Source: Enterobacteria phage ID204 Moscow/ID
Length of the DNA: 5,475 bases
Sequence record: KC237308
Direction: 5' to 3' (one strand)
Shown piece by piece: positions 1 to 5,475 of this stretch. The first letter of the stretch is position 1; each line of letters starts with the position of its first letter. The notes below the pieces were generated by a model, which worked only from the letters and a program-made list of their open reading frames with translations, was not told the origin of the DNA and did no database searches. The translations under genes were made by a program, and so were the position numbers.

Positions 1-3
1 ACC

Positions 4-33
4 TTGACACAACCATAACTACATATCTATTAT
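4..33 (+). promoter_or_regulatory. Candidate sigma70 promoter for gene A (pA): -35 TTGACA at 4..9, 18-nt spacer, -10 TATTAT at 28..33
   Basis: Seen in sequence: exact TTGACA hexamer and a 5/6 match to TATAAT with 18-nt spacing. From memory, phiX174 has a TTGACA in the equivalent H-A intergenic position. The -10 assignment is inference; CTATTA at 27..32 with a 17-nt spacer is an alternative. Confidence 0.45.
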
Positions 34-34
34 G

Positions 35-59
35 CCTCCAAATCATCGGAGGCTTTCTT
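35..59 (+). promoter_or_regulatory. Stem-loop CCTCC (35..39) / GGAGG (48..52) with an 8-nt loop, followed by a pyrimidine-rich tract CTTTCTT; it sequesters the gene A Shine-Dalgarno and may be the readthrough terminator after H
   Basis: Seen in sequence: perfect 5-bp inverted repeat whose 3' arm is the GGAGG Shine-Dalgarno 9 nt upstream of the ATG at 62. From memory, phiX174 has the same arrangement (CCTCCAAATCTTGGAGGCTTTTTT before the A start). The regulatory or terminator role is inference. Confidence 0.4.
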
Positions 60-61
60 AC

Positions 62-1723
62 ATGCAACAAGCTAGTGACTTCTACAACAAACCACATATC
101 GACGCTATAAAACCACTCGTTGAAACCGCTGGTATGTCTGTGCTCTCTCAATCTCCAAACCTCCGTATCTGGAAACAGGTAAATTCTCGCATCAAACTTC
201 TGGAAGAAATTCTCGCTCATTACACCAATGGTATACGCCGTGACGACAACGGCGACTTCTGGATGAATCCTAACTCTCAACTCGCAACTACAATTGCCTA
301 TCGTGCCCATCAAAAAGGACACAATCCAAAACTTATTCAATACCCTGATACATTCACTCTGGATGACATTATCCGTAAAAAGCCATTACCACAAAACGCC
401 CCTGACGAATTAAAACTCTCCGATGAAATCGGGGAAGACTATCGCCTTACAATCATCTCTCTAATCGAAGAAATGCAAGAAATCTACGACGTGCTCGGAC
501 AACTTGATATTAATAACACTATAGACCACAAACCTATCGGTAACGCCCACTGGAATCTACTCTATGAAAAACCTGTCTATAAACACTGGTATGAACTGGT
601 ATCAAAACGACCCCTTAAATCAATCAGAGACGACTACAACTATGCAAAGGCTAAGGGTATCAAAGATGAGTGCTCGAAAATCCTTGAGGAATCTACTATG
701 AAATCACGTAGGGGCTTTACCGTTCAAAGATTAATGAATGCTATGCGTACCGCTCACACTGAGGGCTGGTATGTTGTATTCGATACTCTTACTCTAGCCG
801 ATGACCGCTTAAAGGACTTCTATGATAACCCCAATGCTCTTCGTGACTACTTTCGTGATATTGGTCGCATGGTTCTCACTGCCGAGGGTCGTTCTGTGCA
901 TGATTCATCTGCGGACTGCTATCAGTACTTTTGTGTGCCTGAGTATGGCACCCAGCACGGCCGTCTACATTTTCACGCAGTGCACCTTATGCGCACACTT
1001 CCTCTGGGTTCTATCGACCCTAACTTTGGTAAGCTGGTGCGTACTAATCGGCAAATAAATAGCTTGCAAAACACATGGCCTTATGGTTACTCTATGCCCA
1101 TCGCGGTTAGATACTCCCAAGATGCGTTCTCACGCGCTGGCTGGCTCTGGCCTGTTGATACAAAGGGTGAACCCCTTAAAGCTACCTCGTATATGGCTGT
1201 CGGCTTCTACGTCGCTAAATACGTTAACAAAAAATCAGATATTGACATGGCCTCTAAAGGTCTAGGGAATAAAGAATGGAACAATTCACTCAAAACCAAA
1301 ATCAACCTGTTGCCCAAGAAAATCTTTCGCATCAGAATGTCCCGCAACTTCGGAATGAAGCTCCAGTCAATGAGTCACCTCTCAGCGGAAACACTCATTC
1401 AACTGACCCAAGTGGGTTACGACGTGACCCCGTTCAACAACATCTTGAAGCAGAACGCCAAGAAAGAGCTCAGATTGAGGCTGGCAAAGAAATCTGTCGC
1501 CGACGTTTTGGAGGCGCAACCTGTGACGACCAATCTGCTAAAATTCATGCGCAATTTGACCCGTCAAATCGGAGTGTCCAGCCTACAGAGTTTTATCGCT
1601 TCAATGACAACGAAATTAACAAGTATGGATATTTCTGATGAAACCAAAAACTACGTTGATACTTCAGGAATTGCTTCTACTCACTTACGAATTAAATCGA
1701 AGTGGACTGCTGGCGGAAAATGA
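62..1723 (+). CDS. A: Replication initiation protein A (HUH rolling-circle endonuclease), 553 aa
   Basis: The translation aligns along its whole length with phiX174 gpA as I recall it (for example the C-terminal block ...KSKWTAGGK). The HUH motif HFHAVH is encoded at 968..985 and the active-site tyrosines of YVAKYVNKK at 1208..1210 and 1220..1222. I chose the ATG at 62 because it follows GGAGG (48..52) at 9-nt spacing and matches the position of the phiX174 A start. The ORF track's ATG at 32 is in frame but has no Shine-Dalgarno and lies inside the predicted -10 element. Stop TGA at 1721..1723. Confidence 0.93.
500..529 (+). other. Viral (+) strand origin of rolling-circle replication, 30-nt core recognised and nicked by protein A; predicted nick between G506 and A507
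   Basis: Seen in sequence: CAACTTGATATTAATAACACTATAGACCAC, which matches the phiX174 origin 30-mer as I recall it. It lies inside gene A, encoding ...[10 protein letters not shown]..., as in phiX174. The nick position is taken from established knowledge of phiX174 gpA cleavage. Confidence 0.85.
698..1723 (+). CDS. A*: Protein A* (N-terminally truncated A, from an internal in-frame start), 341 aa
   Basis: In-frame ATG at 698 (MKSRRGF...) preceded by GAGGA at 686..690 with 7-nt spacing. Position and length (341 aa) match the phiX174 A* start as I recall it. Whether this start is used is inference by homology. Confidence 0.75.
1276..1638 (+). CDS. B: Internal scaffolding protein B, 120 aa, overprinted inside gene A in an alternate frame
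   Basis: ORF-track translation MEQFTQNQ...[15 protein letters not shown]...[16 protein letters not shown] aligns with phiX174 gpB (120 aa) as I recall it. A purine-rich AGGGA lies at 1264..1268 upstream of the ATG. Stop TGA at 1636..1638. Confidence 0.92.
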
Positions 1724-1790
1724 TGAAATTCAATCTCAACTTAAAGAATTCGAGAAGCTCTTACTTCGTCACCTTTCGCCATCACCTTAA
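1638..1790 (+). CDS. K: Protein K (small non-essential protein), 50 aa, overlapping the end of A and the start of C in a third frame
   Basis: Not in the ORF track (too short). Hand translation from the ATG at 1638 gives [50 protein letters not shown], with stop TAA at 1788..1790. It matches phiX174 gpK ([31 protein letters not shown]...) as I recall it. The ATG shares its A with the stop codon of B (TGATG). Confidence 0.8.
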
Positions 1791-1974
1791 CGTCTTGGCA
1801 AAGACTGACGCCCTCGACGAGGAAAAATACCTAAACATGCTAGGTGCTCTCCTCAAGGACTGGTTCCGGTATGAAGAGCATTTCGTACATGGTAAACAAT
1901 CAATGCTTGACTTATTAAATGAACGTGGACTATTATCCACATCAACAACCAACCCAAAAGGAAATACAAAATGA
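1720..1974 (+). CDS. C: Protein C (switch from RF replication to ssDNA synthesis and packaging), 84 aa
   Basis: Translation [58 protein letters not shown]... matches phiX174 gpC as I recall it. The ORF track begins at a GTG at 1702; the ATG at 1720 overlaps the A stop as ATGA, the same arrangement as in phiX174. Stop TGA at 1972..1974. Confidence 0.88.
1907..1936 (+). promoter_or_regulatory. Candidate sigma70 promoter for the D-E-J-F-G-H late transcript (pD): -35 TTGACT at 1907..1912, 18-nt spacer, -10 TATTAT at 1931..1936
   Basis: Seen in sequence. It lies inside gene C about 35 nt upstream of D, in the same relative position and with the same architecture as the phiX174 pD region as I recall it (TTGACA ... 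GCGTGGATTACTAT). Activity is inferred. Confidence 0.5.
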
Positions 1975-2426
1975 ATTCTAACGAATCTGCTGTTGCTTTC
2001 GCTACTGCTCTTGCATCTATCAAGCTCATCCAAGCTTCATCTGTGCTGGACCTGACCGAAGACGACTTCGACTTCCTAACCCGTGACCGTGTATGGATTG
2101 CTACCGACCGCTCCCGTGCTCGCCGCGCTATTGAGGCCTGCGTATATGGTACATTGGACTTTGTCGGATACCCTCGCTTTCCTGCTCCTGTTGAATTTAT
2201 TGCTGCCGTCATTGCTTATTATGTTCATCCCGTTAACATCCAGACAGCATGTCTTATTATGGAAGGCGCCGAATTCACCGAAAATATTATCAATGGTGTT
2301 GACCAGCCAGTTAAGGCCGCTGAACTATTCGCTTTTACCCTGCGTGTACGCGCCGGAAACACTGACCATGTTACACATGCAGAAACTAACGTACGTGAAC
2401 AATTACGTGCTCAAGGAGTAATGTAA
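1971..2426 (+). CDS. D: External scaffolding protein D, 151 aa
   Basis: Translation is near-identical over long blocks to phiX174 gpD as I recall it (TALASIKLIQAS.VLDLTEDDFDFLT...WIATDRSRARR...EACVYGTLDFVGYPRFPAPVEFIAAVIAYYVHPVNIQTACLIMEGAEFTENIING). AAAGGA lies 8 nt upstream. The ATG overlaps the C stop as ATGA. Stop TAA at 2424..2426. Confidence 0.96.
   Translation: MNSNESAVAFATALASIKLIQASSVLDLTEDDFDFLTRDRVWIATDRSRARRAIEACVYGTLDFVGYPRFPAPVEFIAAVIAYYVHPVNIQTACLIMEGAEFTENIINGVDQPVKAAELFAFTLRVRAGNTDHVTHAETNVREQLRAQGVM
2146..2421 (+). CDS. E: Lysis protein E (MraY inhibitor), 91 aa, overprinted inside gene D in the +1 frame
   Basis: Internal ATG at 2146 within the 2083..2421 ORF gives MVHWTLSDTLAFLLLLNLLLPSLLIMFIP..., matching phiX174 gpE (MVRWTLWDTLAFLLLLSLLLPSLLIMFIP...) as I recall it, including the transmembrane helix and the proline at position 21. 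GAGG at 2133..2136 lies 9 nt upstream. Length of 91 aa equals phiX174 E. Confidence 0.9.
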   Translation: MVHWTLSDTLAFLLLLNLLLPSLLIMFIPLTSRQHVLLWKAPNSPKILSMVLTSQLRPLNYSLLPCVYAPETLTMLHMQKLTYVNNYVLKE

Positions 2427-2506
2427 TGGCTAAAGGCTCTCGTCGGCGTTCGCCGTCCCGCTCTAAAGGTGCTCGCCTCTGGTATGTTGGCGGCACACAA
2501 TTCTAA
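2426..2506 (+). CDS. J: Small basic DNA-binding/packaging protein J, 26 aa
   Basis: Not in the ORF track (too short). Hand translation gives MAKGSRRRSPSRSKGARLWYVGGTQF, with stop TAA at 2504..2506. The C-terminal GARLWYVGG motif matches phiX174 gpJ as I recall it. AGGAG at 2414..2418 lies 7 nt upstream. The ATG shares one nucleotide with the D stop (TAATG). Confidence 0.88.
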   Translation: MAKGSRRRSPSRSKGARLWYVGGTQF

Positions 2507-2512
2507 TCTTCT

Positions 2513-2534
2513 AGGGGCTTCGGCCCCTCTATTT
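2513..2534 (+). terminator. J-F intergenic hairpin AGGGGC-UUCG-GCCCCU (2513..2528) followed by CTATTT; candidate partial terminator and mRNA-stabilising element
   Basis: Seen in sequence: perfect 6-bp G/C-rich stem closing a UUCG tetraloop, immediately after the J stop. The same GGGGCTTCGGCCCC element is present after J in phiX174 as I recall it. Terminator function is from established knowledge of phiX174, not tested here. Confidence 0.6.
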
Positions 2535-2545
2535 AAGGATATAAA

Positions 2546-3829
2546 ATGTCTAACGTTCAAACTTCCGCTGACCGCATTCCTAACGACCTTTCTCACCTCG
2601 TCTTCGAGGCTGGCAAAATCGGTCGTTTAAAAACTATCTCTTGGACTCCAGTTGTCGCTGGCGACTCATTTGAAACTGAAATGGTAGGCGCTATTCGCCT
2701 TTCCCCACTTCGTCGCGGCCTTGCCGTCGACTCTCGTGTGGATATCTTCTCTTTCTATATCCCGCACCGCCATATCTACGGACAACAATTTATTGACTTC
2801 ATGAAAGCTGGCGTTAATGCCGCTCCTCTTGCTCCGGTTACCTGCTCCTCTGGCTGGGATTCTGCTGCCTATCTTGGCACTATTCCATCCTCAAACCTCA
2901 AGGTTCCTAAATTCTTACATCAAGGATACCTTAATATTTACAACAACTACTTTAAGCCACCGTGGGATGCTGACCTTACTTACGCTAACCCATCTAATAT
3001 GCCTGAACAGGATTATAAATGGGGCGTTTGTGTCGCTAACTTAAAATCTATCTGGACTGCCCCCTTACCTCCTAACTCTAAAACATCAGAGACTATGACC
3101 ACTGGTGCTACGTCTATTGATATTATGGGCCTGCAAGCTGCTTATGCTAAATTGCACACCCAACAAGAACGTGACTACTTCATGACTCGTTACCGCGATA
3201 TTATGAAAGACTTCGGAGGTCACACCTCCTATGACGGCGATAACCGTCCTCTTCTGCTTATGCGCTCTGAATTCTGGGCCTCTGGCTATGACGTCGACGG
3301 TACTGACCAAACCTCTTTAGGTCAGTTCTCCGGTCGCGTCCAACAAACATTCAATCACAAGGTACCTCGCTTTTATGTACCTGAACACGGCGTTATCATG
3401 ACTCTCGCCGTTACTCGCTTCCCTCCGACTCATGAAATGGAGATGCACTATCTTGTCGGCAAGGAATCTTTAACCTATACCGACCTCGCTTGCGACCCTG
3501 CTCTTATGGCTAACCTTCCTCCGCGCGAAGTATCCCTTAAGGAATTCTTCCACTCCTCGCCGGACTCTGCTAAGTTCAAAATTGCCGAAGGCCAATGGTA
3601 TCGTACGCAGCCTGACCGCGTCGCATTCCCCTACAACGCACTTGACGGCTTCCCTTTCTACTCTGCTCTGCCGTCTACTGACTTAAAACAACGTGTCCTA
3701 GTTAACACTGATAACTACGACGAAATCTTTCAGTCTATGCAACTCGCACACTGGAATATGCAAACTAAATTTAATACTACCGTCTATAGACATATGCCTA
3801 CGACTCGTGATTCAATCATGACGTCATAA
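2546..3829 (+). CDS. F: Major capsid protein F, 427 aa
   Basis: Translation aligns along its whole length with phiX174 gpF as I recall it (MSN.QT...DLSHL...PLRRGLA.DS.VDIF.FY.PHRH.YG...QGYLNIYNNYFK.PW...TSIDIMGLQAAYA.LHT.QERDYFM.RY...LPTTRDSIMTS), and the length is identical at 427 aa. AAGGA at 2535..2539 lies 6 nt upstream. Confidence 0.97.
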   Translation: MSNVQTSADRIPNDLSHLVFEAGKIGRLKTISWTPVVAGDSFETEMVGAIRLSPLRRGLAVDSRVDIFSFYIPHRHIYGQQFIDFMKAGVNAAPLAPVTCSSGWDSAAYLGTIPSSNLKVPKFLHQGYLNIYNNYFKPPWDADLTYANPSNMPEQDYKWGVCVANLKSIWTAPLPPNSKTSETMTTGATSIDIMGLQAAYAKLHTQQERDYFMTRYRDIMKDFGGHTSYDGDNRPLLLMRSEFWASGYDVDGTDQTSLGQFSGRVQQTFNHKVPRFYVPEHGVIMTLAVTRFPPTHEMEMHYLVGKESLTYTDLACDPALMANLPPREVSLKEFFHSSPDSAKFKIAEGQWYRTQPDRVAFPYNALDGFPFYSALPSTDLKQRVLVNTDNYDEIFQSMQLAHWNMQTKFNTTVYRHMPTTRDSIMTS

Positions 3830-3840
3830 AGCCTATAACG

Positions 3841-3878
3841 TGACAGGGGGAAAAATTTTAATTTTTCGCCCCCTGTCA
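3841..3878 (+). other. Long imperfect hairpin in the F-G intergenic region (arms TGACAGGGGG / CCCCCTGTCA with an internal AAAAATT / AATTTTT sub-stem); candidate terminator and complementary-strand priming or primosome-assembly site
   Basis: Seen in sequence: 10-bp outer stem 3841..3850 with 3869..3878, plus an inner 7-bp A/T stem and a CG bulge. The phiX174 F-G intergenic region has a homologous hairpin around the same AAAAATTTTAATTTTT core as I recall it. The function is inferred from phiX174/G4 knowledge. Confidence 0.55.
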
Positions 3879-3927
3879 GGTTGAACAAGCGCAAGCGCGT
3901 TAGCTACTTAACTTAAGGACTACTACT

Positions 3928-4458
3928 ATGTTTCAATCTTACGTCTCTAATCACACTTCACCTCAAACTAATACAACTATCTCCGGCTCTAAAACCCCTG
4001 CCGCTCTGGCTCCTATTTTATCTACGCCAGAGCTTAGCAGGGCTACTTTAGCCGGAACTATTACTACTACTGCGTTAGCTTCATACGCTGGTCTAGCACA
4101 TATTGTGCGCATTGACCACACTAACGCTACTAATCATCAATTACTAACTATCGCAACCTCTCTCGCGTCTGCCTCGCCTATTACTGCGATGGCTGTACGC
4201 TTCGAGGTTGCTTCGGGTACGGTTCCTACCGCTATCCCTTCTACAGCTACTTACTATCCAATTCAAAATATCATCTCCGGTACCTTCTTATCTGTCCGAG
4301 ATGCCGTTACTATCGAGACTATTCCAACCACTTCGTCAAATGACGTCTATGCTGGTGTCTTTATCTTCTCTAATGCATGGGTTGCTGGCCCTGTCTCTGG
4401 CGTTATCTCTGTCAATCAGGTAAACCGTGAGGTTTCTGTACTCCAACCTCTTAAATAA
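3928..4458 (+). CDS. G: Major spike protein G, 176 aa
   Basis: Translation MFQSY.S...VRFE..S..VPT..P....YYP......G.F..V.D.VTI...P.......VY.G.......WV.......SVNQV..E...LQPLK aligns with phiX174 gpG (175 aa) at the conserved positions I recall. AAGGA at 3915..3919 lies 8 nt upstream. Stop TAA at 4456..4458. Confidence 0.93.
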   Translation: MFQSYVSNHTSPQTNTTISGSKTPAALAPILSTPELSRATLAGTITTTALASYAGLAHIVRIDHTNATNHQLLTIATSLASASPITAMAVRFEVASGTVPTAIPSTATYYPIQNIISGTFLSVRDAVTIETIPTTSSNDVYAGVFIFSNAWVAGPVSGVISVNQVNREVSVLQPLK

Positions 4459-4467
4459 GGAACTACT

Positions 4468-5475
4468 ATGTTTGGTGCAATCGCTGGCGGTATCGCCTCT
4501 TCTCTTGCTGGCGGACTCATCAACAAAGCCTTTGGAGGCGGTCAATCTGCCTCCTCTACTGGCGTTCAAGGTGATGTTCTCGCTTCTGACAATAATGTAA
4601 TCGGTGCTAATGATGCTGGTATCAAATCCGCTATTCAAGGCTCTAATCCACCTAATGGCCAACAAGCTGCTCCCAATGCTATTTCGGGCGTTCTCGCTGA
4701 CACTGGCAAAGACGCCCTATCTTCAATCACTGGCGCTGGCGTTAATAAACTTATGGAAAAAATCGGACTATCTAAAACTGCTTCTGATAAAGGCAAGGAC
4801 ACAAAGGATTATCTTGCTTCTGCATTCCCCGAGCTCAACCCGTGGGAACGTGCTGGCGCTGGTGCTTCGTCTGCTGGCATGGTTGACGCTGGCTTCCAAA
4901 ACCAAAAAGAACTAACTCGCATGCAGCTTGACAATCAAAAAGAAATCGCTAAGATGCAAAACGACACACAAAAGGATATCGCTGGTATCCAATCTGTCAC
5001 ATCCCGGCAAAATACTAAGGACTCTGTCTATGCTCAAAACGAGATGCTCCAATATAACCAAAAAGAATCTATGTCACGCGTTGGCTCTATTCTCGAAAAC
5101 ACAAGCCTCACCAAACAACAACAAACTTCTGAAATTATGCGGCAAATGCTTACTCAAGCTCAAACCGCAGGTCAACATTTTACAAATGACCAAATCAAAG
5201 AGCTTACACGAAAAGTTGGCGCTGATATTGATTCTGTCCGCGCTAACACTGACCGTACCCATGTAGAAACTCAACGCTCAAAACAGGAGGTTCAAAACTC
5301 CCGTTACGCTTCTTCACAAGTCGGTAAAACCGCTAAGGACGTCTCTAATGCAGTTACTGATACAGCTAGCTCTATTGTTGATTATTTTCGTGGTATTGAT
5401 AACAAAGTGGCAGAAACTTATAACAACTATTTCAAAGATGGTAAATCCGACGGAATCGGGTCGAACATCAAATAA
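4468..5475 (+). CDS. H: Minor spike / DNA pilot protein H, 335 aa
   Basis: Translation matches phiX174 gpH as I recall it over long blocks ([15 protein letters not shown]...GGGQ...[23 protein letters not shown]...[73 protein letters not shown]...[39 protein letters not shown]...DGK.DGIGSN). AAGGA at 4457..4461 lies 6 nt upstream. Stop TAA at 5473..5475, which is the last codon of the window. Confidence 0.95.

Follow-up and report, generated by a model that had tools for sequence, protein, structure and literature searches.

An 11-residue repeat in the pilot protein H of the G4-like microvirus ID204 Moscow/ID corresponds to the three hendecads of the phiX174 H tube

Results

Gene H and its genomic context

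The window, by which we mean the whole stretch of DNA analysed here (5475 bases; sequence record KC237308, Enterobacteria phage ID204 Moscow/ID), is the complete genome of a G4-like microvirus (Bullavirinae, Gequatrovirus). When it was compared by megablast with 50,697 phage records, the closest was Escherichia phage ID2 Moscow/ID/2001, with 96.2% identity over 91% of the window, followed by FL76/FL68 (95.3%) and then by WA14/ID18/G4/ID11 (about 85%). The open reading frames map colinearly onto the annotated genes of ID2 (A, A*, B, K, C, D, E, J, F, G and H), and genes A, D, F and G were confirmed by Pfam.

Some features of the window depart from ID2 outside gene H. Gene K (1638..1790) encodes 50 aa versus 56 aa in ID2. 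The codon GAA of ID2 is TAA in the window owing to a G-to-T change at 1788, which is synonymous (CTT/CTG, Leu) in the frame of the overlapping gene C. Gene G (3928..4458) is a foreign cassette, located at window positions 3917-4413, in an ID2-like backbone. The window is ~96% identical to ID2 at 1-3916 and at 4414-5475, with no blastn match between these two parts, and the best DNA match of the cassette reaches 66.9%. The encoded protein is a genuine member of the Phage_G family (Pfam, 94.7 bits). Its identity to ID2 G is 40%, and to no G among the 50,697 phage records does it exceed 56.5%; no close relatives of the protein were found in IMG/VR viral contigs.

Gene H (4468..5475, + strand) encodes a DNA pilot or minor spike protein of 335 aa. 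The placement expected of a microvirus H is after G, at the end of the F-G-H block, in a genome of roughly 5.4-6.3 kb; here the gene follows the major spike gene G directly and closes the F-G-H structural block, in the same place as in ID2. Its product matches the Pfam family PF04687 (Microvir_H) with 459.6 bits (cut-off 22.7; E 7.6e-138), covering profile positions 2-308 of 310, and 329 of its 335 residues (98%) are identical to ID2 gpH. The assignment to H made in the preliminary description is therefore borne out by both the Pfam score and the identity to ID2 gpH.

A phmmer search of the protein against all PDB chain sequences returned 4JPP and 4JPN as sole matches, both of them the coiled-coil domain of the phiX174 'Minor spike protein H'. 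Residues 138-291 aligned to positions 1-140 of chain 4jpp_A (E 3.2e-57), and residues 138-216 to 4jpn_A (E 4.4e-34). Since these sequence matches to crystallised chains lie far above any threshold, we consider the window H to be homologous to the tube domain. The central domain that aligns to the crystallised phiX174 tube thus comprises aa 138-291 (4879..5340, +). The lack of such an alignment had been named beforehand as a finding that would speak against the assignment; the alignment is present. The A-rich segment described below had also been said to mark the functional core of H, and it does fall within the part aligned to the solved structure.

The first 25 residues of H (4468..4542, +) form a Gly/Ala/Ser-rich, hydrophobic N-terminus, presumed to be a membrane-interacting helix. 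The stretch contains 8 Gly, 15/25 small residues and nine small-xxx-small motifs, and residues 1-19 are the most hydrophobic 19-residue window of the whole protein (Kyte-Doolittle 1.36). A glycine-rich N-terminus had been placed at 4468..4545 and described as retained. Retained it is, with 20/25 residues identical to phiX174 H, but its end lies one codon earlier, at 4542. In phiX174, the N-terminal region of H is hydrophobic and involved in assembly and in interaction with membrane lipids, as summarised in the bioRxiv phiX174 mutagenesis preprint.

Three units with the phiX174 register

Bases 4900-4992 (+) correspond to residues 145-175 of the 335-aa H protein, and their translation had been given exactly. 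The repeat array in this region consists of three units: Hendecad 1 (aa 146-156; 4903..4935, +), Hendecad 2 (aa 157-167; 4936..4968, +) and Hendecad 3 (aa 168-178; 4969..5001, +). The first two start with CAAAAAGAA and the third with CAAAAGGAT. The interval 4900-4992 stops short of the end of the array: all three units together occupy 4903..5001 and end 9 nt further on.

Column for column, these units match those of phiX174 H, which are listed in Table 1 of Roznowski, Fisher & Fane 2020 and together span phiX174 residues 151-183 (PMC7354561). Hendecad 1 is identical at 10/11 positions to QKELTKMQLDN (from 151), Hendecad 2 at 9/11 to QKEIAEMQNET (from 162), and Hendecad 3 at 9/11 to QKEIAGIQSAT (from 173). 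Overall, 28/33 residues are the same, and the Gln positions are identical.

The repeat at the nucleotide level

Recurring A-rich nucleotide units had been reported in this segment, and this observation was confirmed. The motif CAAAARGA occurs in 5 copies in the window versus 0.43 expected, a number reached in 0/200 shuffles. Of its copies in H, three (at 4903, 4936 and 4969) follow one another at intervals of exactly 33 nt, and the fourth is at 5059; all four encode Q-K-E/D. Moreover, no other 93-nt stretch of the genome is as rich in A as 4900-4992 (46% A, 99.9th percentile), and the lag-33 nucleotide identity across the three units is 44/66.

Both the excess of the motif and the richness in A would be compatible with units that act as DNA or RNA, be it as a substrate for slippage or recombination, as a protein-binding array on ssDNA, or as an internal promoter. 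Two additional observations point in the same direction. The H homologue of Pectobacterium phage Mimer (ON872163, UUW39432) carries precisely one further 11-residue unit, so the number of units has changed in evolution. In addition, a promoter-like sequence (TTGACA-16-TAAGAT) is located at 4928-4955. We nevertheless regard a role at the DNA or RNA level as very improbable. The three units (residues 146-178) are pairwise identical at 3-6/11 positions as protein and at only 19-23/33 positions as DNA (58-70%), and Tandem Repeats Finder, run on the whole window with a minimum score of 30, reported no array in H because the DNA identity between the units is too low. The codons used are the preferred ones of the genome, in which CAA accounts for 81% of Gln, AAA for 71% of Lys and GAA for 71% of Glu codons; with these preferences, about 40% of Q-K-E occurrences would be expected to be written as CAAAAAGAA.

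Comparison with relatives also argues against such a role. The QKE/QKD peptide is kept while the DNA varies, with CAGAAAGAG, CAAAAGGAA and CAGAAGGAA in G4 and CAAAAAGAG, CAGAAAGAG and CAAAAAGAG in phiX174, and this synonymous variation is as frequent as elsewhere in H. Among codons with a conserved amino acid, the share that differs synonymously from phiX174 is 0.61 in the hendecads versus 0.42-0.50 in the rest of H; against G4, the corresponding values are 0.32 and 0.14-0.48. No extra synonymous-site constraint in the hendecads was seen in this comparison. Folding of the packaged ssDNA strand at the segment was nothing unusual (z = 0.14), and no family was matched in an Rfam search of the window.

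The promoter-like sequence (4928-4955, +) is a sigma-70-like candidate inside hendecads 1-2 that agrees with the consensus at 10/12 positions, and consensus is the only match it has. A codon alignment shows its hexamers preserved in relatives of the G4 clade, whose amino acids do not differ there in any case, and eroded in phiX174 and NC29.

Within the tests run, the most fitting reading of the nucleotide repeat is that it follows passively from the repeat in the protein, because the codons are preferred ones, extra synonymous constraint, a stable fold and an Rfam match are all absent, and the open stretch in the +1 frame (see below) is no longer than in shuffled sequences.

The period of the repeat

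The segment had been described as a series of heptad-like repeats. A repeat beyond chance is indeed present, but it recurs every 11 residues (33 nt) and not every 7. Within residues 146-178, the amino-acid identity at lag 11 is 12/22, compared to 4 at lag 7; every other lag between 2 and 15 gives 0-4. A lag-11 score of 12 was reached by 0/5000 shuffles of the whole H protein and by 0/5000 shuffles of the coiled-coil region. A 7-residue, left-handed coiled-coil repeat could draw on the weak lag-7 signal (4 identities), which arises from the Gln residues found at i and i+7 inside each unit, and further downstream the domain is truly heptad-based. We still consider this reading highly unlikely, even less probable than a role of the DNA itself. 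Apart from the strength of the lag-11 signal, all six Gln of residues 146-178 occupy position 1 or 8 of their unit, and each of these two positions is Gln in 3/3 units. Their spacing is 7, 4, 7, 4 and 7, which sums to 11 per unit; in a heptad register, the same six Gln are scattered over three positions. Finally, the homologous phiX174 residues were published as hendecads (PMC7354561), and the N-terminal half of the tube as a right-handed supercoil (PMC4224467).

Helical-moment and register-enrichment tests were used as a stand-in for a coiled-coil predictor. The moment of Gln, Asn and Arg peaks at 98.0 degrees, equal to a period of 3.67 or 11/3 (p = 0.088, over only 33 residues), and the enrichment of Gln in the hendecad register gave p = 0.045; both are marginal values, taken from a short stretch and from sequence alone. 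In the heptad region, moment and register tests stayed below significance (p 0.07-0.4). For a barrel with a polar lumen, 'coiled-coil propensity' alone cannot decide the matter. Because the lumen is lined by Gln, Asn and Arg, an absence of this propensity would not count against the assignment to H.

The 11-residue period is shared across the family. In all nine H homologues examined, including phiX174, the alpha3-like NC29 and the distant Mimer, the strongest internal repeat is at lag 11 and lies in the same region. Q146, Q153, L154, N156 and M163 are invariant in the alignment of these nine proteins.

An overlapping gene in the +1 frame (ORF 4928..5266, 112 aa, TTG start) is the least probable source of the composition of the segment: the window and all G4-like relatives share a stop-free stretch of 116 codons that begins close to H codon 150, but codon-order and synonymous-codon shuffles of H give means of 121 and 143 codons (p = 0.48 and 0.73), and the open stretch of NC29 has only 74 codons. 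For the window and G4, the open stretch is explained by codon composition (p 0.34-0.73). In phiX174, the +1 frame of H is free of stops for 205 codons from near H codon 46, with a borderline p of 0.019 by codon-order shuffling and p 0.15 by synonymous shuffling.

The remainder of the tube domain

Downstream of the hendecads, the register of phiX174 can be followed through the rest of the domain. A transition (kink) segment (aa 179-189; 5002..5034, +) is identical at 10/11 positions to the phiX174 Transition 184-194 SRQNTKDQVYA, which is helical but kinked (PMC7354561). It is followed by Heptads 1-10 of the left-handed tube part (aa 190-259; 5035..5244, +), for which the register was transferred from Table 1 of PMC7354561, where Heptads 1-11 cover phiX174 residues 195-271. 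The identity of the individual Heptads 1-10 to phiX174 ranges from 2/7 to 7/7. The phiX174 'amide bald spot' T244/M251/K254/E258 has conserved equivalents in T239/L246/K249/D253.

Two extra heptads (aa 260-273; 5245..5286, +) have no counterpart in phiX174 H and appear as a 14-residue gap in the alignment to 4JPP. This insertion, exactly two heptads long, falls between the equivalents of phiX174 heptads 10 and 11, and in the transferred register its heptads carry Asn/Arg and Glu/Arg at positions 1 and 4. The last heptad, EVQNSRY (aa 274-280; 5287..5307, +), is equivalent to phiX174 Heptad 11 QTQNQRY. In this heptad, E274 stands for phiX174 Q265; the latter is Glu in other clades (PMC7354561), and the Glu of the window agrees with this.

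A single-sequence AlphaFold2 model of full-length H had a mean pLDDT of 53.3, a low confidence at which it is usable for secondary structure only. It predicts helices at 136-180, 184-233 and 240-323. The first predicted break, at residues 181-183, coincides with the published kinked transition, and the helix 240-323 runs unbroken across the insertion, with a pLDDT of about 65-70. When the model was compared with the PDB by Foldseek, the best E was 2.6 and the matches were unrelated, as expected for long isolated helices.

Comparison with other H proteins

The H protein of ID2 (NC_007817, YP_512378; Gequatrovirus talmos) likewise has 335 aa, and the 31-residue segment encoded by 4900-4992 is identical in both phages; on the DNA level it differs by two synonymous changes only, at 4912 and 4917. 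The six substitutions between the two proteins (window to ID2: S106A, E122D, S186A, Q195E, E316D and T317A) are all located outside the hendecads. In phiX174, H has the same order and register of three hendecads, an 11-residue transition and heptads, with an overall identity to the window protein of about 67-72%; the number of heptads is 11 in phiX174 but 13 in the window.

The gpH proteins of G4, ID11 and ID18 (Gequatrovirus G4) share the hendecads and the 14-residue, two-heptad insertion with the window. Unlike the window protein they have 337 aa, they are 84-91% identical to it, and other synonymous codons are used in their QKE motifs. The insertion was found in ID2, ID18, G4, ID11 and SECphi17, but it is absent in phiX174 and in NC29. 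It is therefore a clade-level trait, visible in long-published G4 sequences and not specific to the window.

The pilot protein of Mimer is an H homologue with 30-32% identity to the window protein, and its lag-11 repeat occupies the same region. Its units, such as TALKATAMNNE and TALQSTAMTND, are not based on Gln. The lag-11 identity in Mimer H is 13/22, a value that 0/2000 shuffles reach. Given its one additional unit, the number of units in the right-handed tube part varies across the Microviridae.

Discussion

The 11-residue period at the start of the tube domain has a simple geometric meaning. Helices with 11 residues per 3 turns (3.67 per turn) supercoil in a right-handed manner, while those with 7 residues per 2 turns (3.5 per turn) supercoil in a left-handed manner. 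From this 11/3 geometry, we take the hendecads to be the sequence basis of the right-handed part of the tube. The central coiled coil of phiX174 H has been solved (PDB 4JPP and 4JPN; Sun et al. 2014 Nature 505:432, as cited in PMC7354561 and PMC4224467). Its monomers are kinked near the middle, with the N-terminal half in a right-handed and the C-terminal half in a left-handed supercoil, and the tube has a length of 170 Å (PMC4224467). According to the phiX174 literature, its width leaves room for two antiparallel ssDNA strands. The lumen carries N, Q or R at 18/23 positions, with Q being the most abundant, and mutations of lumen residues impair genome delivery while assembly, attachment and eclipse are unaffected (PMC7354561).

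Taking these results together, we estimate the probability at roughly 95% that the segment encodes three hendecads that start the central α-helical domain of H, and that the A-rich periodicity of the DNA is passive. None of our results contradicts this reading. The segment corresponds to the three published hendecads of the phiX174-family H tube, an already known feature of a tube whose structure and genetics have been worked out in phiX174.

If H works like its phiX174 homologue, ten monomers would leave the capsid at infection. They would form a decamer that conducts the DNA, with the glycine-rich, hydrophobic N-terminus as the presumed membrane-interacting end. The right-handed supercoil in the N-terminal part of the barrel would stem from the hendecads, and after the kinked 11-residue transition the heptads would lead to the left-handed supercoil of the C-terminal part. 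Gln146, 153, 157, 164, 168 and 175, at unit positions 1 and 8, are the likely lumen-facing amides and may contact the passing DNA. The A-rich periodicity would then be Q-K-E written three times, 33 nt apart, in the preferred codons CAA/AAA/GAA.

In-frame insertions that lengthen the coiled coil of phiX174 are reportedly viable, and deletions are said not to be fully functional. At the published 170 Å per 121 residues, the two-heptad insertion would lengthen the H tube by about 20 Å. The insertion of the window has 14 residues and lies in the heptad part, whereas that of Mimer H has 11 residues and lies in the hendecad part. These two cases suggest that insertions and deletions respect the local structural unit. 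As the indels of H come in whole units, the length of the tube may be unit-quantised and evolvable. It is a speculative and rather doubtful idea that the G4 clade has a tube longer by ~20 Å as the product of such an evolvable, unit-quantised trait, perhaps tuned to the host envelope or to the spike protein G. If this were true, only the functional link would be new, as the insertion itself is already contained in published sequences.

With respect to the biology of the H tube, the repeat of the window adds nothing, and a protein sharing 98% of its residues has already been deposited. The mosaic nature of gene G is more noteworthy than the repeat in H, because G is the spike protein implicated in the recognition of host lipopolysaccharide (bioRxiv phiX174 mutagenesis preprint). 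What is gained for gene H is annotation: its register can now be placed as right-handed hendecads, a kink, left-handed heptads and a clade-specific insertion of two heptads. The correction from 'heptad' to 'hendecad' matters here, since the two periodicities give opposite handedness of the supercoil.
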